DNA of 64,000 nt, from positions 36,535 to 100,534 of the forward strand of contig CANQPK010000001.1 in NCBI GenBank assembly GCA_947625685.1, written 5' to 3'. This stretch comes from an uncultured Clostridia bacterium (GTDB lineage: Bacteria; Bacillota; Clostridia; TANB77; CAG-508). A program made the position numbers and the translations under genes. The notes beneath the pieces are model-generated. The model was not told the DNA's origin and did not search any database. It saw nothing but the letters and a program-made list of their open reading frames with translations. Each line of letters opens with the position of its first letter. Position 1 is the stretch's first letter. Positions 5,135-64,000 of the stretch are shown in pieces.

Positions 5135-8100
5135 CTAAAACATACTATCAAAAAGGCTCATTTGGTTGGTTTCACTCATCCCCTCAAGACATCCAAATTT
5201 CTCTAAAAGTGCTATTGTCGCATCTCCTACTTTTGCACGTTTTTTTATATCTTGTTTAGAAATGAATTCTCCGCTTTTCTCTAGCACTAGCAATACCAAT
5301 AGCTGCAACTTCTCCCATACCAGCAATACTACTTAGTGGCGGACGAATGCTTCCGGTTTTCTACTTTAAATTTGGTTGCATCAGACTTATATAAATCTAT
5401 TGGCAAGAAATTAAAACCTCTTTCATACATCTCAAGAACAGATTCCAAAATAGAATACATATTCTTATCTTTTGCAGTTGCATCATTTCCAAGTTTTTTT
5501 ATATCTGCCATTTTTTCTCTTACTTTGCTTTTTCCAAAAATCATAACTTCACTATCAAATTCATCTGCTCTTATTGAAAAGAATGTTGCATAATATGCAA
5601 GTGGTTTATGCACTTTAAACCAAGCAATACGAAATGCCATAGTTACATACGCAACAGCATGTGCTTTTGGGAACATATATTTTATCTTCTTGCAGGATTC
5701 AATATACCATTCAGGTACATTATTTTCCCTCATAAGAGTTTCTTGTTCCTCTGTTAATCCTTTGCCTTTACGAACGCATTCCATTATTTTAAATGAATTT
5801 TGAGCAGGAAGTCCCATACTTATTAAATATGTCATAATATCATCTCTAGTACATATTGCTTCTGCTAGAGTTGCTTTTCCTTCTTTAATTAAATCTTGAG
5901 CATTATTATTCCAAACATCAGTACCATGTGAAAGTCCAGATATTCTAACTAATTCTTCAAAAGTTTTTGGCAATGTTTCAACAAGCATATCTCTAACAAA
6001 TCTTGTTCCAAATTCAGGCACTCCAAAAGTTCCTACCTTTGAATCTATTTGTTCAGGAGTTACTCCTAATGCCTCCGTTGAAGAAAATATAGACATTGTT
6101 TCTTTATCATCAAGTGGAATACTTTTTGGCTCTATTCCAGTTATATCTTGAAGCATCCTTATAACTGTTGGATCATCATGTCCTAACATATCAAATTTAA
6201 GTAAGTTTTTATCTATTGAGTGATAATCAAAATGTGTTGTAATTATATCTGAGTCTGGGTCATCTGCCGGATGCTGTACAGGACAAAATTCATATATTTC
6301 ATGTCCTTTTGGAACAACTACGACTCCTCCTGGATGTTGTCCGCGTTGTTCTTTTTACACCAGTACATCCTTCTGCTAATCTATCAATTTCTGCTGAACT
6401 TACTCTTATATTTCTTTCTTCAAAATAATTTTTCACATATCCAAAAGCAGTTTTTTCTGCAATTGTTCCTATTGTTCCTGCTTTAAATGTTGTTCCCTTT
6501 CCTAAAATTTCTTCTGCATATTTATGTGCTTTTAGTTGGTATTCCCCTGAAAAATTTAGGTCTATATCTGGTTCTTTATCCCCATTAAATCCTAAAAATG
6601 TTTCAAATGGAATATCCACCCCGTCTTTTATAAGTTTTGTTGCACATTTAGGACATAATTTATCAGGAAGGTCAAATCCATTCTTAACTCCATAATCAGA
6701 AAAATCCGAATACTTGCAATTAGGACATCTATAATGTGGTTTTAGAGCATTTACTTCAGTTATTCCTGTCATATAAGCCGCAAGTGATGAACCTACAGAT
6801 CCTCTTGATCCAACCAAATAGCCATCTTCATTAGATTTAGCAACAAGTTTCTGTGCTATTATGTACATAACTGAAAATCCATTTTTTATAATCGAGTCTA
6901 ATTCTTTTCTTAATCTTGTTTCCACAATTTCTGGAAGAGGATCTCCGTATAATTCTTTTGCTCTATTCATAGCTATATCTTCTATTGTTTTTTCACAGCC
7001 TTCAATGTATGGTGGACATTTTTCTTTAGATATTGGACTAATTGCTTCACACATATCTGAAATCAGATTTGTATTAGTCACTACTACTTCATAAGCTTTT
7101 TCTTTTCCAAGATATGAGAATTCTTCTAGCATTTCCTCAGTTGTTCTTAAGTAAAGAGGCGCTTGAAAATCAGCATCATCATATTTCTGACCTGCCATTA
7201 ATATTCTTCTATATATTTCATCCTCTGGATCTAAGAAATGTACATCACAAGTTGCAACTACTGGTTTATTTAATTTTTCACCTAACTGCACTATTTTTCT
7301 ATTTATCTCTATTAAACCATCATTGTTTTCAATGCTTCCATTTCTAATTAAGTATTCATTATTTCCTAAAGGTTGAATTTCCAAATAATCATAAAAAGAT
7401 GCTATCTCTTCTATTTTATTTTCCGGTAATCCTTCTAAAATTGCCTGATATAATTCTCCTCTATCACATGCACTTCCTATCATTAATCCTTCACTATATT
7501 TTTTGTATAGGCTTCTAGGTATCTTAGGTTTTTTATAAAAATAATCTAAGTGTGAAAAAGAAATAAGCTTATATAAGTTTTTAAGTCCAACATAGTTTTT
7601 AGTTAATATAACCGCATGATATGTTGGAAGTTGTTTTAAGTTAATATCTTCTTTAAAAATATTATCTATTTCACTTAAATTTTTAACGCCTTTTTCTTTC
7701 AAATTTCTAAGCATGACTTCAAAAACTTTAACTAATGTTTTTACATCATCCAAAGCTCTATGTGCAACATCTACTCTTATTCCTAAATTTTCAGCAATTA
7801 ACCCTAATTTATGTCTTTTATATTCAGGAAACATTTCTCTTGCAATAGCTAAAGTGTCAATATATGTATTATTAAGTGTTAAGTCTTGAAGCTCTGCAAA
7901 ATGTCTTATAAATCCAATATCAAAATTTGCATTATGTGCAACTAATACACTATCTCCTGCAAATTCTAAAAATTTTGGTAAAACTTTATCTATTGTTTCA
8001 GCATTTCTTACCATATCATCAGTAATATGAGTAACTTTTATTACATCATAAGGTATTGGCTTTTCTGGATTTACAAAGCATTCAAATGTATCTATAATCT

Positions 8101-41960: not shown

Positions 41961-44596
41961 TTATTCTGTAACTTCCACTACTTTTAGTGTAACATCTTTA
42001 TAGGTAACCTCACCAGCTTCATTCAAATATGGGGCATGAACTACTTCAGTCTTTTCGGCAGATAGTTTACCTGTTACAAACTGTTCTAGTCCCTTTAGAG
42101 GTGAATCCAAAGCAGCAAATTTTCCTTTAGAAATAACTGCTGAAGCTGTACCTGACACTGAATATAAACTTATTATAGGAAGATTGTTATTGCAACAACT
42201 TATCATTCCTGTAGTATTGACGGACAACGTTCCATTTTCCCCGATGTCCATACTGGTGCTATTGGTATTCCATGCATAGAGTGATGAATTATCGGAGAAA
42301 TCCATATGTCCATATACGCCCACATTGCAACATAACACACTGTCCCCCTGGATACTCAATAAAGAACCCGGTTGGACAGACGCGCCGTGGCTACTCATAG
42401 GATTGCTCGTACCTAAGAAACTTTTACCTAGCACCGTGACGTTAGCCGTGTGGTTAGTAATACCGACAATCTAGTACCCTGTCAACCCCGTAAATGTGAG
42501 TATCTAAGATTTGAACTGGAGTCGAAGTCTCAATATGTAGTGGAACATCTATATTTGACTTGAATGTCGATCTTTCTACCTTCAAACTACTCGTATCCAT
42601 CATTTTTATACCATAGGCCTTCCCAGTGTTTTCAAGATTGGAATCATATATTTCCACATTGTAATTTCCGTCACAGTGTAATGCACTACCTTTTCCCGCA
42701 ATTACTTTTGCATTTTGTAGTTTTAATGTTCCATCTCCTCCTTTAATACTTATTGCTGTATTTTTTGTTGATATACTTGCACCTGTAATACTTACATTTG
42801 CTGAGTGTCCTTCATCATTTTGATAGATGTTTATTCCAACCATTCCATCAATTGTAACACCTTTGTTTATAGTTAATTGTCCCGGACTACGCCATGATAT
42901 AACCCCATTGTCATTCGTTGTCTCTTCTACATTTCTTAGTAATGTTTCTCCATTTATTGTTAATGTCTGCCTATTATCTTCATACTTATCACTAACGATA
43001 CAATTTTTGTTTGATTTAGCATATATTTTTGAGTTTGTAATCGTTGCATTTCCCATTCCTTGCAAGCGAAGTGCTCCGCATACTAGATACATTAATTGTT
43101 GAGTCAGTTATAGTAAGATTTGAAGTGTAACCATGTTGCAAAATAACAGCGTGGCCTGCTGTTTGAATATTTACTGCTCCTTCTATGTTTATATTTCCTC
43201 CATACGCAGTCATAAACCACTTTGCTGCTTCAGATACTATGTTTCCTGGACCTTTTATTGTAAATGTTCCACTATTTATAAGTATAAGTCCGTTGCGGTC
43301 CTCAGAATTTTGAAAATTTTCTGTTGCTTCTATTTTTAATGTTTTGTTATTTGTATCTATCTGTATTGTTTTTGCTATTTCAAATGATGTTGCAAATACT
43401 TCTGTTACATCTTTTTCTAATACTATAGTTCCTCCTCCAAATTCTCCTCCTTTATCTATCGCGTCTTTATATGCTTCAGAAAGTTTTTCATAATATATTT
43501 TTTTGCCATTATTACTTATACTGTAATTTGCTTTTGCTAGAACAATTTTTATATTATCTACTTCACTTTCATTTCCTGCTTTATCTACTGCTTTTACTAT
43601 TATTGTATATTCATTATTTTCGTTTAAGGCTGTAAATGTACAGTCTGCTGATGCTTGTTCTGTTTTATTGGCTATTACAGCCTTTTCCTGTGGTTCTCCT
43701 TCTCCTTGTAATGCAAATATTATCTTTGCTACTCCACTTTCTTCTTCTGGTTTGTCTGTTGGTGCTATTCCATCTTTTGCTATAGCTTTTACTGTTATAC
43801 TATTTGTTGTTGTCTCTGTTATTTGTGAAGTTGGTTGATCTGGTGCTACTGTGTCTATTATATTTATTTTCTTTGTTGCTGTTTTTAATATTTCTCCTAT
43901 ATTATTTTTTACTCTTACAATTATTACTCCATTTGCTGTTATATCTATCTTGCTTCCTTTTATATAGTTTGTCCATCCTGTTTGTGCTTTTGGATCTTTG
44001 GTATATTCTACAATTAGTCCTGATAAATCTTCTTCTGATACATCATTTACTGTTATTGTTGCATGTATTGGTATTTCATGTGTCCACTCATTTTTGTCTA
44101 GTTCTATAATTATACTTCCTTCTTTTATATCTGGTAATGGTTTAAATCCTTCTCCTTCTCCTACTTTTCCTACATTTTTGACATCTTTTTCAGTTACATA
44201 AAATACATATCCTTCCTTTGTTACTACCCTTAATTTTTCTTCTCCTTCTCCTGTATCTCCTATTATCTCTGCTGATCTCATACCTTTGAATTGTTCTGAT
44301 TCTTCTACTCTCTTTTTAAATTCTTCTAGGTATGCTCTACCTTTCAAATCATCAAATATTTGTTTCTCTGCTAATACTGCTCCTATTTCTACTAGCCCTT
44401 CTCTATATTCTGCTATCCTCATATTTTCTGCTGCCTCTTGTGTCATTTGAAATAATCCATGGTCTCCTATTACTGCTCTTATTCCTATTGACGCTAGTAT
44501 TATTAGTATTATTATTGTTATTATTAGTGCTATTAGTGTTATTCCTTTTTCTTTTATTGTGCCTATATTATCTTTTCTCTCTTCTTTTTTACTCAT
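41961..44596 (-). CDS. locus-1 large secreted protein (~875 aa): prepilin-like N-terminus (KG-ITLIALIITIIILIILA), FN3/Ig-like repeats, parallel beta-helix-like region and a Cys-rich, GC-rich C-terminal domain; two +1 breaks
   Basis: Three track ORFs (43016..44596, 42454..43092, 41961..42434) join when the C is removed at atgCggagc (plus 43075-43078) and tgtCggtat (plus 42462-42465). The N-terminus resembles a class III/type IV prepilin leader but has Ala at +5. It is a paralogue of 60665..62611. Confidence 0.6.
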
Positions 44597-44619: not shown

Positions 44620-45084
44620 TTATTTACTTAATTTGAAGTCATATGCATTTGCATAGTCTAATGCTGTACTTACATTTAATTCTGTACTCTCTCCTGGCTT
44701 TAATCCTTCTATATATGCTGGTATTGTTGTTATCTCTTTTCCTGTATTATCTATTAGCGTTATATTGAATACTGCTGTTTGTACTGCACTAGTTGTATTT
44801 TTTACTGTTCCTAATAACACTGTGTCATTTTCTCTTTCTGTTAATTGTAAGTCACTTATTTCTAATCCATCTAACATTTTTGTCTTATGTAGCTGTTCAC
44901 TTGTGTTTAATTTTGTTTCATCATCTAAGACATCTACAAATTCTTCTACTGGTGTATTTGTTTCATTCCCTCCTGATTGGTTTTCATTTTCTCCTTTGTT
45001 TCTTGCTAGTAGGGTTATTCCTCCTATTATTAATACTGCGACAATAATTAATATTATTATTTTTTTTCTCTCTGAATCTTTCAT
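44620..45084 (-). CDS. locus-1 small N-anchored membrane protein (paralogue family A1/A2/B2)
   Basis: 154 aa. One N-terminal TM, then a ~120-aa domain with the conserved LDGLEISDLQL ... TVLLGTVKNTT ... ITLIDNTGKEITTIPAYIEGLKPGEST. Paralogous to 62650..63180 and 60079..60633. Confidence 0.6.
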   Translation of the reverse strand: MKDSERKKIIILIIVAVLIIGGITLLARNKGENENQSGGNETNTPVEEFVDVLDDETKLNTSEQLHKTKMLDGLEISDLQLTERENDTVLLGTVKNTTSAVQTAVFNITLIDNTGKEITTIPAYIEGLKPGESTELNVSTALDYANAYDFKLSK

Positions 45085-45123
45085 TTGCCTTCTTTTCCCT
45101 TCTTTTTTATATATAACAAAAAA

Positions 45124-45166
45124 GACACGCCAAACCTACACTAAAAAGTATAAGTACTGTGTGTCC
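45124..45166 (-). terminator. leader hairpin + U-tract (attenuator-like) upstream of the locus-1 structural genes
   Basis: On the minus-strand RNA, GGACACACAGUACUUAUACU...AGUGUAGGUUUGGCGUGUC pairs with several G-U wobbles, followed by UUUUUUGUUAUAU. Homologous to 63227-63273. Confidence 0.55.
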
Positions 45167-45184
45167 TTATATTACTTTTTTCTT

Positions 45185-45238
45185 TTAATATACCTGTGTG
45201 TATATATATAGAGCCTCTAAGGTTCTAGCTTTTGTCAT
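45185..45238 (-). CDS. leader peptide ORF (MTKARTLEALYIYTQVY) of locus 1
   Basis: RBS AGGAGAAC 8 nt upstream of ATG at 45238-45236. The first 10 codons are conserved with the locus-2 leader (MREARTLEAL). The stop lies 18 nt before the hairpin. Confidence 0.5.
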   Translation of the reverse strand: MTKARTLEALYIYTQVY

Positions 45239-45283
45239 CTTTTGTTCTCCTTTAAATTTCTATTTTTTTCTTGATTTTATTTT

Positions 45284-45312
45284 ATTATAATGCGTTTTTT
45301 TACTTCGTTCAA
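45284..45312 (-). promoter_or_regulatory. sigmaA promoter of locus 1 (TTGAAC-17-TATAAT)
   Basis: Minus -35 at plus 45307-45312 and -10 at plus 45284-45289, downstream of the lysS terminator. Confidence 0.5.
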
Positions 45313-45465
45313 TAGGGGTAATTAATTTGTAATATAAATGTAATATTTATGAAATATTTTAAAACAGAGTCCTTCTTGACATTTTTGGAATATAATTCGT
45401 GTTCATTTAATAAATCATCTAACTTTGAAAGTTTTATTTTTTACTTCCTTTTTTATTTGTTAGAG

Positions 45466-60078: not shown

Positions 60079-60633
60079 TTAATTCAATAACTGTCTAGTT
60101 ATTTGTATTTTGGTTGCTTTAGTTAAATCTTGTATATCACTTGTTTTAAGTTTTGTACTTTCTCCTGGTTTTAATACTGGTATATATGCTGGTAATTTTG
60201 TAATTATTTTTCCATTCGCATTTATTAACCCTACATCTAGAATAATTCCTCCTTGTTCTTCTTGGGTCTTATTTGTTACATTTCCTACTATATCTGTCAA
60301 TCCATTTTTATAATTTAAATCTATTCCGCTTATTTCCATTCCTTCTATTGTTTTCGTATCTAATACTTTTCCATCTGAACTAATCATAAATTCATTTGTT
60401 TTTTCTTTATTAATTGTGTTTTCGTTATTATCTTTATTTTCTTCTGGATTTTTTATATTATTTGAATCACTTGCTAAAGTATTTAATTCAACATTGTTAC
60501 CTTGTGTATTTTCTTCACCTTGAGCAAGTAATGTTTCTTTTTCATTATTTATACCTAAAATATTTAATGCAACTATTATAACTATTCCAACCACTATTAA
60601 TATTATTATTCCTTTTTTCTCCGAATCTCTCAT
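60079..60633 (-). CDS. locus-2 small N-anchored membrane protein B2 (paralogue of A1/A2)
   Basis: 184 aa. N-terminal TM and the conserved C-terminal domain (GMEISGIDL ... GKIITKLPAYIPVLKPGEST). Confidence 0.6.
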   Translation of the reverse strand: MRDSEKKGIIILIVVGIVIIVALNILGINNEKETLLAQGEENTQGNNVELNTLASDSNNIKNPEENKDNNENTINKEKTNEFMISSDGKVLDTKTIEGMEISGIDLNYKNGLTDIVGNVTNKTQEEQGGIILDVGLINANGKIITKLPAYIPVLKPGESTKLKTSDIQDLTKATKIQITRQLLN

Positions 60634-60664
60634 TTTACTCTCCCTTCTTTAGTTTAATCCTATA

Positions 60665-62611
60665 TTAATCATGTGCTACACCGCCATAGTTGTGCGCGCA
60701 GTAATAGTGACCATTGTAGTAACCATGACCACAGTTGTAACGACCATATGAGTGAGCAGAAGTTCTACCATGTTCGCATGTCTCCGTAACTGTATGAGGA
60801 GATGTGTTTCCGTGTGAACATGGACTTGTTGTAGTCACAGTATGCGCACTCATGTTACCATGTATGCAAGGTGAGTCTATTGTATGTGAACTAGAGTATC
60901 CATGTGGGCAGGTTTTGTCGTAGAAACCGTCATTGTTGTGGTCAGGACCAGGGCAGTGATCAACACGTCCTCCAGAGCATTGGGTAGTGGTAGTTGTACC
61001 ACCAGGACAAGTGTAAGAACTTCCTCCACTGCACCACTCAGAACCTCCCCCACTACAGTACTTCGTCGTTCCTGTACATTGTGTTTTTGCTTTGTTATCT
61101 CTTTTAGTTGCTGTATGATTTACTGTGTCTGTTACTTCTACATGATATGTATAATCTGTGTAATTAGATAATCCTGTTACTTCTAAATCTATATTTTTTC
61201 CTTGTGCTTGATTCTCTAGTGTCCTTTTTGGTGTTTTTTCAGCATCTATATATACCTTGTATGTTAGTTTTCCTTGGTCTGCTGCATCTGGATCTGTTGC
61301 ATTTACTCTTATTGTAAGTGTTGTTGGTGTTTTGCTTGCAACCGATACACTGTTTATTACTGGTGCTACATTTGCAAGTGGTAATACTGCATCTGCATTT
61401 GCACTTTTTCTTAGGTTTTCTGCTTTGTCTACTGCTTCTACATATACTTTGTGTGTCATTCCATCTTTTTGGTTTGTTGCGTTATATGTTGCACTTGTTG
61501 ATTTGCCTAATACTAATTTTCCATCTATATAATAATTATAATATGCTATTCCTGATTCGTTATCTTTTGCTGAACTTGCATCTATTGTAAATGATGTTGG
61601 TTGTATATTTTTTATTACTGGTGTAAATTCAATTGGTTTATCCAAATCTACTATTGTCACTGTTGCAGTGTTTCCTGAATAGTTATATCCATCTGTTAAT
61701 CGTGCTTTTACTGTATATCCTAATTGTAAATTGTCTATTACCTGTCCATTTTCTATTGTTATGTCTTTTCTTCCATTTACTATACTTCCTTTTTCGTCAT
61801 ATACATCATATTTTACTGTATAGTTATCTTGACTTGTCTTTTTTATTACTACACTTGCTATTCCATTCTTCCATGTTGTATTCTCAAAGTCTAATTCTCC
61901 CTCTCCATATTCTATTACTTTTGTTCTTGCTTCTGCATATTTTTCACTTGTTCCGTTTTTATTTGTTGCTTCTACTTTTATTGTGTATATTTTATCTTGA
62001 TCTAGTCCATCTATTGTATAGCTTAAATTTTCTGTTCCTGTTATTGCCTCTTTATATTCTCCTGCTTCTCCTATTGCTCCTTCTTTATAGTAGTATGCAT
62101 ATGTTGCTCCTTCTCCTCTTTTTACTGTTATGTCTGCTTTTATACTTCTTGTTGTTGCTGTTAATTGTAGTTTTACTATTTTTACTGTTAAGTCTTCTGC
62201 TTTTCCTTCTACTTCTACATGGTCTACTTTGCTCTTATCTTCTTCTGTTGGTACTACTCTTGCTACCCATCCATCTGGTGTTACTACTTCTTTACTTCCA
62301 TCTTCATTTTCTACTGTTTCATTTGGATCTATTACGTCTTTCTTCTCTAATTCTTCAATGTATTCATCCATTGTTGGTTCTCTTCCCTCTTGTCCCGCCT
62401 CTGCTGTTACTGTAGCTTGAGGTATTACAAATCTTTCTTCTACTTCTCCTACTTGATATGAATCTGCTGCTCCCTTTGCTAGATCTAATAAGTTACCTGA
62501 TCTTAATGTACCTATTGTTACTATTGATAATATAATTAGTATTATTATTGTAATTATCAAGGCTACTAATGTTATTCCTCTTTCTTTTTTCATATCTTCC
62601 TTTCCTTTCAT
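60665..62611 (-). CDS. locus-2 large secreted protein (648 aa): prepilin-like N-terminus (RG-ITLVALIITIIILIILS), FN3-like repeats and a C-terminal Cys/His-rich tandem-repeat domain
   Basis: Paralogue of 41961..44596; the N-terminal TM region is nearly identical. The C-terminal ~140 aa contain about 6 degenerate C-x-H-G-x(3-5)-H-T repeats (CPHGYSSSHTIDSP, CIHGNMSAHTVTTTSP, CSHGNTSPHTVTET ...). GC is elevated, which I estimate by eye as at least 40%, over 60665-61100. Confidence 0.6.
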   Translation of the reverse strand: MKGKEDMKKERGITLVALIITIIILIILSIVTIGTLRSGNLLDLAKGAADSYQVGEVEERFVIPQATVTAEAGQEGREPTMDEYIEELEKKDVIDPNETVENEDGSKEVVTPDGWVARVVPTEEDKSKVDHVEVEGKAEDLTVKIVKLQLTATTRSIKADITVKRGEGATYAYYYKEGAIGEAGEYKEAITGTENLSYTIDGLDQDKIYTIKVEATNKNGTSEKYAEARTKVIEYGEGELDFENTTWKNGIASVVIKKTSQDNYTVKYDVYDEKGSIVNGRKDITIENGQVIDNLQLGYTVKARLTDGYNYSGNTATVTIVDLDKPIEFTPVIKNIQPTSFTIDASSAKDNESGIAYYNYYIDGKLVLGKSTSATYNATNQKDGMTHKVYVEAVDKAENLRKSANADAVLPLANVAPVINSVSVASKTPTTLTIRVNATDPDAADQGKLTYKVYIDAEKTPKRTLENQAQGKNIDLEVTGLSNYTDYTYHVEVTDTVNHTATKRDNKAKTQCTGTTKYCSGGGSEWCSGGSSYTCPGGTTTTTQCSGGRVDHCPGPDHNNDGFYDKTCPHGYSSSHTIDSPCIHGNMSAHTVTTTSPCSHGNTSPHTVTETCEHGRTSAHSYGRYNCGHGYYNGHYYCAHNYGGVAHD

Positions 62612-62649
62612 TTTTTTATTTTTACTTTGTTTTTTATTCTTGCTTTTCT

Positions 62650-63180
62650 TTACTTGAAGTTACTTATCCTTATGTCATATGCATTTGATACATCTCCTGA
62701 TATTGATACGTTTAATTTTACTTTCTTTCCTATTTCTATTGGGTCTATGAATCCCATTGCACTTGTTATTACTTTTCCTTCTTTATCTAATATTTCTACT
62801 TTTATTTTTTTCTCTGTTGTTCTTCTTGTTGTTTTGTTTTCTACTTCTGCTAATAATGTTGTCATTTTTCCTTTTTCTTTTTCTTTTAATTGTATGTTGC
62901 TTATTTCTAGTCCATCTAATGTTTTTGTTTTTGCTACTTCATCACTTATATTTAATTTGCTACCATCCTCTAATACTTGTACATATTCTTCTATTTCTTC
63001 TTTTGGATCTGTTGTTGTTTGATTTTGTCCTTTTCCTATTTCATTTCCTCCTGTTTGTCCTGAAGCTATTTGCTCATTTTGTGATTTTGCAGCTACTTTT
63101 ACAAATATGTTTAGTCCGACTATGATTGCTATTCCTACTACTAATAGTATCAATATGTTTCTTTTCTCTTTCCCTGTCAT
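62650..63180 (-). CDS. locus-2 small N-anchored membrane protein A2
   Basis: 176 aa. TM, then KTLDGLEISNIQL ... TTLLAEVENKTT ... VITSAMGFIDPIEIGKKVKL. Same family as 44620..45084. Confidence 0.6.
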   Translation of the reverse strand: MTGKEKRNILILLVVGIAIIVGLNIFVKVAAKSQNEQIASGQTGGNEIGKGQNQTTTDPKEEIEEYVQVLEDGSKLNISDEVAKTKTLDGLEISNIQLKEKEKGKMTTLLAEVENKTTRRTTEKKIKVEILDKEGKVITSAMGFIDPIEIGKKVKLNVSISGDVSNAYDIRISNFK

Positions 63181-63226
63181 TCGTTTTCCTTCCTTTCCTT
63201 TCCTTTTTTTATTTTATATAACAAAA

Positions 63227-63250
63227 GGGCACACAAAACTTATACTTTAA

Positions 63251-63273
<23 letters not shown>
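63227..63273 (-). terminator. leader hairpin + U-tract (attenuator-like) of locus 2
   Basis: On the minus RNA, GGACACACAGGACUUAUACUU-aauua-AAGUAUAAGUUUUGUGUGCCC is followed by UUUUGUUAUAUAAAAU. It sits between the leader ORF and the A2 RBS. Confidence 0.55.
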
Positions 63274-63364
<91 letters not shown>

Positions 63365-63412
63365 CTTTCGTTCTCCTCCAAAATTCACATTTTAACTTAT
63401 GTGTTTAATTTT

Positions 63413-63441
63413 ATTGTAGGATATTTTTCGTTAATAGTCAA
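63413..63441 (-). promoter_or_regulatory. sigmaA promoter of locus 2 (TTGACT-17-TACAAT)
   Basis: Minus -35 at plus 63436-63441 and -10 at plus 63413-63418. Confidence 0.55.
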
Positions 63442-63487
63442 CAAAAGTTGCTAATTTGTAACATAAATTTAATAGTATTGTAATATT

Positions 63488-64000
63488 CTATCTTTTACAT
63501 TTTTTTGCTGCTTCTACAAGTCCTACAAACAAAGGCTGAGGTCTATCAGGTCTTGACTTAAATTCTGGATGGAATTGTCCTGCAATAAAATATGGATGTT
63601 TTGTGTATTCTACCATCTCTACAAGTAGCCCATCTGGTGATGTTCCAGAAATCATTAAGCCTTTTTCTTCTATCATTTCTCTATAATTGTTATTAAACTC
63701 ATATCTATGTCTATGTCTTTCTGATATTTCTTTTTTACCATATAATTTTTGGGCTAAACTACCGTCTTTAAGTACACAAGGATATGCTCCAAGTCTCATT
63801 GTTCCACCTTTTTTTGATACATTCTTTTGCGTATCCATAATATGTATAACAGGATTTTTGCAGTTTGGACTAAATTCTTCTGAATCCACATCATCAAGTC
63901 CACAAACATTTCTTATAAATTCAACAACTGCCATTTGCATTCCAAGACATATTCCAAGGAAAGGTATATTATTTTCTCTTACATATTTTATAGCATGTAT
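63488..64000 (-). CDS. pyrG: CTP synthase, C-terminal glutamine amidotransferase domain; gene continues beyond the window end
   Basis: [18 protein letters not shown]...[14 protein letters not shown]...[11 protein letters not shown], the class I GATase region of PyrG. Confidence 0.9.

Follow-up and report, generated by a model that had tools for sequence, protein, structure and literature searches.

A stretch of 64 kilobases (kb) from contig CANQPK010000001.1 of an uncultured Clostridia bacterium, referred to below as the window, carries two related leader sequences, each situated directly upstream of genes for membrane and prepilin-like proteins. Locus 1 occupies positions 45085–45312 and locus 2 positions 63181–63441, both on the minus strand, and the corresponding leaders are denoted W1 and W2. 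An earlier note on this DNA had proposed that the two copies share a promoter, a ribosome-binding site (RBS), a short leader open reading frame (ORF), a hairpin and a U-tract, and the aligned promoters, the GGAG Shine-Dalgarno (SD) sequence and the RNA folds confirm this arrangement. The features of locus 1, with lengths in nucleotides (nt) and amino acids (aa), are as follows.

45318–45336, minus strand: upstream motif TATATTACAAATTAATTAC, consisting of ATTACA-type repeats, just 5' of the -35 element; conserved in W1, W2, L002, L003, L017 and L024 (labels explained below).
45284–45312, minus strand: sigma-70-like promoter TTGAAC-17-TATAAT, matching the consensus scan at 10/12.
45247–45250, minus strand: SD sequence GGAG of the leader ORF, read from the sequence, 8 nt 5' of the ATG.
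45185–45238, minus strand: leader ORF MTKARTLEALYIYTQVY, ATG at 45238 and stop codon TAA at 45187–45185, in the short (predicted off) register.
45209–45230, minus strand: 22-nt block AGCTAGAACCTTAGAGGCTCTA, codons A-R-T-L-E-A-L, identical at locus 2 (63356–63335).
45195–45208, minus strand: degenerate repeat (TA)4(CA)3 in the leader ORF, counterpart of (CA)16 of locus 2.
45141–45194, minus strand: latent read-through frame GILKEKSNIRTHSTYTF, crossing the 5' arm of the hairpin and closed by TAG (45143–45141) just past the loop.
45123–45166, minus strand: terminator-like hairpin GGACACACAGTACTTATAC...GTGTAGGTTTGGCGTGTCT, 44 nt, fold -19.4 kcal/mol.
45115–45123, minus strand: U-tract TTTTTTGTT, directly after the hairpin.

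The counterparts at locus 2 are listed in the same order.

63413–63441, minus strand: sigma-70-like promoter TTGACT-17-TACAAT, aligned with the promoter of locus 1.
63373–63379, minus strand: SD sequence.
63251–63364, minus strand: leader ORF beginning MREARTLEAL, 37 aa, in the read-through register.
63303–63334, minus strand: perfect repeat (CA)16.
63227–63273, minus strand: hairpin.
63217–63226, minus strand: U-tract.

The alignment of the two leaders spans from ∼60 nt 5' of the -35 element to the start codon of the downstream gene. Within it, the 22 nt reported previously as identical (AGCTAGAACCTTAGAGGCTCTA) are found exactly twice in the window, both times on the minus strand, with 0 occurrences expected from shuffled sequences. 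The conserved stretch written in the earlier note as 'aagaaaaa(g/a)(a/g)' is likewise present at both loci (AAGAAAAA..TAATATAAGGACACACAG), followed by the long hairpin and the U-tract, and the distance of 18 nt given there between the leader stop codon of locus 1 and its hairpin is exact: a purine-rich spacer of this length separates the stop from the first G of the stem. Motif searches allowing 3 mismatches retrieved these two loci only, and no inverted copy of the 22-mer is present in the window, even with 3 mismatches, which led us to reject an invertible promoter. Folding of the whole leaders gave z-scores of -3.3 for locus 1 and -7.6 for locus 2.

Homologous leaders on metagenome contigs and in metagenome-assembled genomes (MAGs) are labelled L001–L028, and leader peptides retrieved from databases P0121–P0141. 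A DNA-pattern scan with a 20-mer from the conserved block against one genome per species (GTDB) matched 2 loci, both in MAGs titled 'uncultured Clostridia bacterium, Lapin-...', and searches of the JGI metagenomes returned 0 matches with the 20-mer and 0 with a degenerate 23-mer from the hairpin. A protein-collection search seeded with the aligned sequences of the window's three small paralogues resulted in 275 matches; the contigs of the closest ones were examined, and leaders were located via the downstream protein in L004, L017–L021 (L020 among them), L022, L023 and L024/L025. A further query was the hypothetical 41-aa read-through version of the leader peptide with (CA)22. L027/L028, a ninth leader besides the eight full-length ones discussed below, was found via its peptide and is therefore on register by ascertainment. 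L027 and L028 are 95% identical to each other and represent a distant lineage with the same anatomy, in which a gene 200 nt further on encodes a protein with the same prepilin-like N-terminus. About 15 related read-through-frame peptides have already been called as proteins in public assemblies; they follow the pattern x(T/S)LE(A/T/R)(L/V)-(HT)3-5-...GNIRTH(R)TY(T/M)F.

Beyond the window, at least 11 homologous leaders, drawn from other genomes and from metagenomes, share the architecture. In 10 aligned homologous promoters the TTGA of the -35 element and the TA.AAT of the -10 element do not vary, and AGGAG or GGAGG occupies the equivalent place in all full-length homologues. In L001, L002, L003 and L023 the 22-nt block immediately precedes the repeat tract, and variants of it are found in L017, L024 and L028. 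The leader ORF, which the earlier note expected in homologues, is present in the recovered leaders, but leaderless paralogues also exist: no leader was found 5' of the paralogues in an rplQ/helix-turn-helix (HTH) context (L005, L016, L026) or of the human-gut homologues (L006–L015). In L005, L016 and L026, which are located in the same MAGs, a homologous promoter feeds the gene directly. The repeat-terminator leader is thus a module of some loci only.

The repeat unit is 2 nt long, so that gain or loss of a unit changes the frame in which the rest of the leader is read. The register was evaluated by computing the leader product for every repeat number (n) at locus 2. When 2n mod 3 = 2, the ORF continues (..NILEEKDNIRTHRTYT) across the entire 5' arm and ends with a TAA in the hairpin loop; when 2n mod 3 is 0 or 1, it stops at a TAA or TAG located 26 or 18 nt short of the hairpin. 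With n = 16, locus 2 of the window belongs to the read-through register; the register of locus 1 is a short one, from which loss of one 2-nt unit would open the read-through frame. Exactly one frame enters the hairpin in each of W1, W2, L001, L002, L003, L004, L017, L020/L024, L022, L023 and L027/L028; in all 11 leaders the stop of this frame lies in the hairpin loop or the 3' arm, and those of the other two frames lie 18–29 nt upstream of the hairpin. The geometry is found with spacer sequences that differ between lineages (L028 GGTATATATCTTAATAGATTAGGAAATAGAGG vs locus 2 TAATATATTAGAAGAAAAAGA). Spacer changes past the repeat are mainly A/G transitions at codon positions 1 and 2, by which the residue is altered and the purine-only composition kept, and a purine-only spacer cannot contain a stop codon.

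The (CA)16 tract of locus 2 is the sole long perfect dinucleotide repeat in the window. In 180 kb of sequence (the window plus the fetched loci), all 9 tracts of (CA)≥6 lie inside leader ORFs, directly past the conserved block, and tracts of (CA)8–11 are present in L001, L002, L003, L017, L023 and L028. On this evidence the dinucleotide tract is a maintained feature. Its length is hypervariable. Contig L001 is identical to locus 2 throughout the leader and the gene (∼900 nt), encoding exactly the same downstream protein, except that it carries (CA)8 in place of (CA)16; this 16-nt difference changes the reading frame, and L001 (n = 8) is outside the read-through register. In a similar manner, the leader peptides P0126 and P0129 differ solely by one His-Thr pair, equal to three CA units. 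No length is favoured among the tracts, which have 8–16 units. The earlier note overlooked this hypervariable repeat in the leader ORF, by which the state of the leader appears to be set. Its prediction of opposite default states agrees with the opposite registers in which the two loci are now found, but these states are not fixed, the variable repeat being what determines them. Five short metagenome contigs (L004, L018, L019, L020 and L022) start within the CA tract or at its 3' end, and such breaks hint weakly at length heterogeneity or at a multi-copy leader.

Conservation is unevenly distributed between the two loci. The N-terminal leader block is 93% identical and the segment from the repeat to the end of the 5' arm 90% identical, whereas identity is 72% in the promoter, 73% in the 3' arm and 70–73% in the downstream genes; the segments that would be translated in the on register are the best conserved. 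One might suppose that the similarity has no function and was simply left behind when one operon was recently duplicated, or when the two underwent gene conversion. Twenty-two identical nt lacking synonymous differences are a typical product of gene conversion, and the leaders look mosaic, L004 combining a 97% match to the locus 1 protein with a different 3' arm. However, the adjacent genes have diverged to 70–73% DNA identity and to 40–42% protein identity for the small FxLYD proteins, depending on the alignment method, as opposed to 90–93% for the leader segments, and the architecture is found again in other species and contexts, the stem showing compensatory changes, which makes a relic highly improbable.

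The earlier note saw conservation at the level of the peptide. Codons 4–10 are nucleotide-identical in W1 and W2, however, and only codons 2 and 3 differ, both in an amino-acid-changing manner; given that codons 4–10 hold no synonymous differences, the window pair carries no evidence of peptide selection. Across the eight leaders for which DNA is available, codons 4–10 display the synonymous changes TTA to CTA (three leaders) and CTA to CTG, together with the non-synonymous changes T to S, A to T, A to R and L to V. These substitutions are too few and too mixed, and peptide-level selection was rejected as a demonstrated property of the leaders. In the wider peptide set LE and the subsequent L or V are nearly constant and the neighbouring residues vary. 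A small hairpin within the 22-mer (UAGAACCU/AGGCUCUA) was also considered as the cause of conservation and rejected, since by inspection the substitutions in L017 and L028 break it.

The hairpin of locus 1 has a predicted energy of -19.4 kcal/mol as minus-strand RNA and of -10.7 kcal/mol on the opposite strand, in line with the G-U-based, minus-strand-specific stem described by the earlier note. Its stem uses U·G pairs and contains one A·C mismatch as well as an internal loop. Minus-strand RNA folds better in most copies, fold energies across the copies are between -16 and -27 kcal/mol, and a T-run follows the hairpin in all homologues. A simple terminator scan calls locus 2 and misses locus 1 because of the internal mismatches of the latter, although its geometry is the same and UUUUUUGUU is present; within the set, locus 1 has the second weakest hairpin and the best U-tract. 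At both loci the stem-loop and U-run have the anatomy predicted for an intrinsic (Rho-independent) terminator, and termination would be expected to occur at the hairpin. Assignment to a known RNA family was rejected: Rfam at gathering and permissive thresholds gave nothing for the element, with no match to Rfam 15 in the window except tRNA and only chance-level matches (E above 5) in region 45000–45420.

In nine close homologues the 5' arm is nearly invariant and the 3' arm varies mostly by A/G opposite U, with 90.4% of the alignment cells paired. All changes are one-sided (U-A to U-G and similar); no double-sided change was found among these nine and covariation was not above that of shuffles, owing to the near invariance of the 5' arm. 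The G-U pairs called 'compensatory' in the earlier note are consequently one-sided wobble substitutions, both between the two loci and among the nine close homologues. The ∼29 G·U cells, each an A·C mismatch if read from the opposite strand, contrast with only 3 A·C cells, a bias indicating that the structure favours minus-strand RNA. Once L027/L028 are added, 91.7% of cells are paired, compared with 25–72% for slid registers, and three double-sided compensatory pairs appear: C-G to U-A twice (one with a U-G intermediate in L003) and U-A to G-C once. The resulting covariation score was matched by 0/500 shuffles. The covariation that the earlier note looked to homologues for is thus absent among close relatives and present in three pairs in the extended set; all three changes come from one lineage, so that the sequence support for the hairpin is real but thin. 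As for the conserved functional RNA element postulated earlier, strand specificity, recurrence and maintained pairing hold, while activity is what we infer from them.

Taken together, these features suggest that the element is a cis-acting leader which combines slipped-strand phase variation with ribosome-dependent transcription attenuation, and we consider this interpretation probable. Transcription would start at the conserved promoter, and a ribosome would load on the strong SD sequence and translate the short leader ORF containing the dinucleotide repeat. About 30 nt past the repeat lie the hairpin and the U-tract which, if the hairpin forms, should terminate transcription ∼30 nt before the first structural gene. 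Gain or loss of repeat units would rotate the leader through three frames. In two of them the ribosome would meet a stop 18–29 nt before the hairpin and leave, the terminator would form and the operon would be off or at a basal level. In the third frame no stop is met along the purine-rich spacer or anywhere in the 5' arm, and the ORF closes only in the loop or 3' arm; a ribosome trailing the polymerase in this frame would occupy the 5' arm and block the hairpin while the 3' arm and U-tract are being transcribed, turning the operon on. Under this scheme locus 2, with (CA)16, would be on register and locus 1 off register. The tract of locus 1 is short and mixed, on account of which slippage should be rare, and locus 1 should be an effectively locked or leaky-off copy that seldom switches.

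The scheme places the terminator and the structural genes in one transcription unit. Alternatively, the promoter, small ORF and terminator might constitute an independent small gene, for a small protein or a small RNA, with the operon transcribed separately. In L003, L024 and L028 the spacer from the terminator to the gene measures 110–250 nt and could hold a promoter, and read-through-frame products of 34–57 aa are called as proteins in public data. On the other hand, in both window loci and in L004, L017, L022 and L023 only ∼30 purine-rich nt lie between the U-tract and the next start codon, which leaves no room for a separate operon promoter; the homologous promoter of the leaderless paralogues feeds the same gene directly; and both the length and the C-terminus of the product shift with the repeat number, which would be odd for a functional peptide. 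We accordingly give the independent gene very little probability compared with a leader of the operon.

In folding predictions the hairpin is unchanged and the repeat unpaired at n = 0–24. Repeat length having no effect on the predicted fold, the reading frame is the obvious variable, and action through the frame is the simplest reading of the model. The repeat could nevertheless act outside the frame, through the length of or protein binding to CA-rich RNA, through DNA structure or through mRNA stability, with the leader ORF not being the sensor. Every predicted fold leaves long CA tracts unpaired, and these might offer a binding platform; in addition, the frame architecture alone is not statistically exceptional. 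Yet a strong SD sequence and an ATG are found at a fixed distance 5' of the tract in every copy, stops in two frames follow immediately past the tract in every lineage, including L028 with its different spacer, tract lengths of 8–16 units show no preference, and the experimentally dissected precedent (see below) operates via translation. Control outside the frame therefore seems unlikely to us.

A different kind of attenuator is conceivable as well, namely one that senses a signal, either by ribosome stalling on His (CAC) or Thr (ACA) codons when charged tRNA is scarce or by a trans-acting factor on the 5' block, the repeat length being incidental. An in-frame (CA)n indeed encodes alternating His and Thr codons in a leader peptide before a terminator, comparable with the codon-run leaders of amino-acid operons (hisL, thrL, trpL), and the N-terminal block and 5' arm are more conserved than phase variation needs. 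Unlike in those systems, no antiterminator pairing is predicted here, the hairpin and the unpaired repeat being insensitive to n over the range given above; pairing of the repeat with UGUGUG of the 3' arm, considered as an alternative structure, did not appear in the predictions whatever the repeat length. Downstream lie genes for membrane and surface proteins rather than for enzymes of His or Thr biosynthesis, the codon run varies two-fold between otherwise identical alleles, and the ORF ends a few codons past the tract in most copies. Moreover, a ribosome stalled upstream would no longer be coupled, and termination would become more likely, whereas starvation-induced expression requires the reverse. 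A signal-sensing attenuator is, in our judgement, about as unlikely as a repeat that works outside the frame, and a frame-dependent phase switch is retained as the preferred interpretation.

Several observations count against such a switch. The geometry of one open and two closed frames arises by chance with P about 0.13–0.17 in dinucleotide-preserving shuffles of the same composition; at a chance rate of 13–17% a single instance proves little, and the weight comes from recurrence in diverged lineages. Only 1/8 full-length leaders with DNA is in the open register (locus 2 of the window), a count which fits the expected 1 in 3 and is uninformative. The tract of locus 1, (TA)4(CA)3, is too short for a good switch, and a length variant of locus 1 itself was not observed among the recovered sequences. 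The nearest off-frame stop lies 18 nt before the hairpin, closer than in the off alleles of Streptococcus gallolyticus (28 nt or more). Strong conservation of the N-terminal block and 5' arm is not fully explained by a phase-variation model. Ribosome-polymerase coupling has been reported to be weak in Bacillus subtilis, and the timing requirement may fail. Finally, transcripts, 3' ends and expression in this organism, and with them leader translation, termination at the hairpin and control by the position of the ribosome, enter the argument by inference.

The proposed mechanism is not new in kind, and the searched literature contains one experimentally worked-out precedent, the pil1 and pil3 loci of S. 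gallolyticus (Danne et al., PMC3894217). There, the leader contains GCAGA repeats and the effect on expression depends on the leader start codon and on the terminator (PMC3894217); the device also worked once transferred to Lactococcus (Danne et al.). Short-leader alleles, in which the stop lies 28–39 nt before the terminator, are expressed at a low level, and out-of-frame alleles, with the stop within or after the terminator, at a high level (PMC3894217). The present leaders resemble pil1/pil3 in the order of promoter, RBS, short repeat-bearing leader ORF, stem-loop terminator with U-tract and first gene of an operon, here one for putative surface proteins, in the variable length of a repeat whose unit is not a multiple of 3 and whose number sets the stop upstream of or within the hairpin, and in that two loci per genome carry the device in a gut-associated Firmicute host. 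They differ in the repeat, which is CA (2 nt, 8–16 units) instead of GCAGA (5 nt, 13–22 units), in the registers, of which 1/3 reaches the hairpin here whereas both out-of-frame registers give longer peptides in S. gallolyticus, and in the off stops, located 18–29 rather than 28–39 nt before the hairpin. Conservation of a non-repeat N-terminal block (..TLEAL) and of the 5' arm is peculiar to the present leaders. The S. gallolyticus pili are sortase-assembled LPXTG proteins, whereas prepilin-like N-termini and an FxLYD membrane protein are found here. The two systems share no sequence homology; the former is proven genetically and the latter known from sequence alone. Full-text literature searches yielded no CA-repeat version and no description of the present leader family.

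More general parallels are provided by Escherichia coli. In its pyrBI and pyrE attenuators, translation that reaches the terminator prevents hairpin formation, and the rph-1 frameshift of strain K-12 lowers pyrE expression because translation ends early. As proposed for the present leaders, the ribosome occupies the 5' arm of the terminator without any antiterminator hairpin, and a stop shifted upstream raises termination. In contrast to them, pyrBI/pyrE sense UTP-dependent polymerase pausing and have neither a hypermutable repeat nor stochastic switching, and rph-1 is an accidental laboratory mutation. With simple-sequence-repeat phase variation, as in Neisseria opa and Haemophilus lic/hif, the present leaders would share a slipped-strand repeat and reversible, heritable on/off switching of surface proteins; the repeat lies in the coding region or promoter spacer in those systems, and in an upstream leader ORF that probably acts on termination in the present one. 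The downstream genes of hisL, thrL and trpL are biosynthetic, unlike those considered here.

The genes under control would be of the sort that is usually phase-varied, that is, surface proteins. If the proposed mechanism is correct, a leader-ORF repeat gating a terminator would be a recurrent design for the stochastic control of surface proteins in gut Firmicutes, here in a non-homologous dinucleotide-repeat version at several loci per genome, with related leader peptides in further metagenome assemblies. Such leaders break metagenome assemblies and stay hidden from gene-centred searches for phase-variable genes, as the repeat lies outside the regulated gene. For locus 1 itself the result is modest: a degenerate, off-register copy beside an apparently fragmented structural gene.

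The history of the leaders may involve exchange. In L004, which encodes a near-identical counterpart of the first locus 1 protein, the contig starts in a CA tract at the position of the locus 1 repeat and the hairpin has a different 3' arm; the combination suggests decay of the locus 1 tract and either exchange or rapid evolution of leaders. One may go further and picture the leader as a portable, recombining switch cassette, composed of the promoter, a ..TLEAL-(His-Thr)n leader and the terminator, that has spread among many loci and lineages of uncultured gut Clostridia and provides each operon for a prepilin-like surface protein with its own stochastic switch, the conservation of the N-terminal block and 5' arm possibly serving a further function, which may be that of a nascent-peptide or pause signal holding the ribosome near the polymerase in a phylum whose ribosome-polymerase coupling is weak elsewhere. 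This extension is a speculative one, to which we attach a small but appreciable probability.

L001 and the window have identical sequence beginning 32 nt ahead of the pyrG stop codon and continuing from there (TTGTAGAAGCAGCAAAAAAATGTAAAAGATAG; compared were L001 1–300 and window 63488–63760), and its further upstream part is an unrelated ORF with the same ending, ..VEAAKKCKR followed by the stop. The shared pyrG tail and the unrelated upstream ORF place the leader-operon cassette of L001 in a different genomic context, and the junction reflects either recombination or a chimeric contig. L003 has a second leader at 7330–7535, 2.2 kb 3' of the first, with the same promoter, the start MTNTRTLEAL and a CA tract of 7–8 units; its post-repeat sequence is different (CAGATTGTTGAGCAATTAG...) and the contig ends 40 nt on. 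The tract of this second leader is included in the 9 CA tracts counted above. In L002 (1–75, minus strand) the T-run is directly followed by GTGCGACGGGCATGTCG..., a sequence like that at the start of group II introns. The Rfam match (group-II-D1D4-4, 10.8 bits, E = 3.1, 75 nt) is weak and cut by the end of the locus, which makes the intron a tentative candidate. Some group II introns insert after terminators, and a genuine one at this place would mean that the hairpin had been recognized independently as a terminator.

ATTACA(A) repeats are located just 5' of the -35 element at 45318–45336 and 63445–63480 of the window, at 2870–2920 of L005 and at equivalent positions in L016 and L026; the related repeats in the leaderless paralogous promoters of L005, L016 and L026 have the form TATTACAA. 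The ATTACA-type motif upstream of the leader promoters is a possible operator or UP element. Its occurrence in both kinds of promoter raises the idea that the ATTACA(A) motifs could act as a common operator and add another level of control. The leaderless loci adjoin a small, divergently transcribed gene of HTH_3/XRE type.

The genes downstream of the two leaders are the following.

45088–45099, minus strand: purine-rich SD sequence of the 154-aa gene of locus 1.
44620–45084, minus strand: 154-aa single-pass, membrane-anchored protein with an FxLYD domain (NCBIfam NF038353, 25.4 bits, cutoff 23), first gene of locus 1.
41961–44596, minus strand: large prepilin-like gene of locus 1, in three ORFs (526 aa, 43016–44596; 212 aa, 42454–43092; 157 aa, 41961–42434).
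62650–63180, minus strand: 176-aa FxLYD-type membrane protein of the locus 2 operon (60079–63180).
60665–62611, minus strand: 648-aa prepilin-like protein of the locus 2 operon.
60079–60633, minus strand: third small FxLYD-type paralogue, last gene of the locus 2 operon and lacking its own leader; it shares 32% identity with the locus 2 copy.

The large proteins are very divergent between the loci. Their N-terminus, K/R-G-I-T-L-I-A-L ahead of a hydrophobic stretch, is prepilin-like except that Ala occupies the position where Glu5 would be usual. The domain matches of these proteins (Ig/Fn3, beta-helix, N_methyl, prepilin-peptidase-dependent) are weak and below the curated thresholds, and domain assignment was rejected on that ground; the N-termini suggest surface or pilin-like proteins. 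In the large gene of locus 1 the first two ORFs overlap by 77 nt in different frames, and the second and third are split by a stop codon and a 19-nt out-of-frame gap. No homopolymer or repeat is present at these junctions, and the split points either to a decaying locus or pseudogene or to an assembly error.

The C-terminus of the 648-aa protein (∼130 residues, window 60665–61100) is rich in Cys, His and Gly and contains repeated HG..S.H and C.GG motifs (for example ..CSGGGSEWCSGGSSYTCPGG.., ..HGNMSAHTV.. and ..HGRTSAHSY..). No family match was found for this module, which looks like a metal-binding or disulfide-rich one. In L024/L025 (2100–2478) the prepilin-like gene after the small membrane-protein gene is cut to 42 aa (MKERKRKSEKGITLIALIITTIFSYDEK...) and is followed by unrelated sequence with an ORF starting MENKELKERFIDKKTGIEYVRQGDYYIPNL; the truncation may have been caused by insertion of a mobile element.

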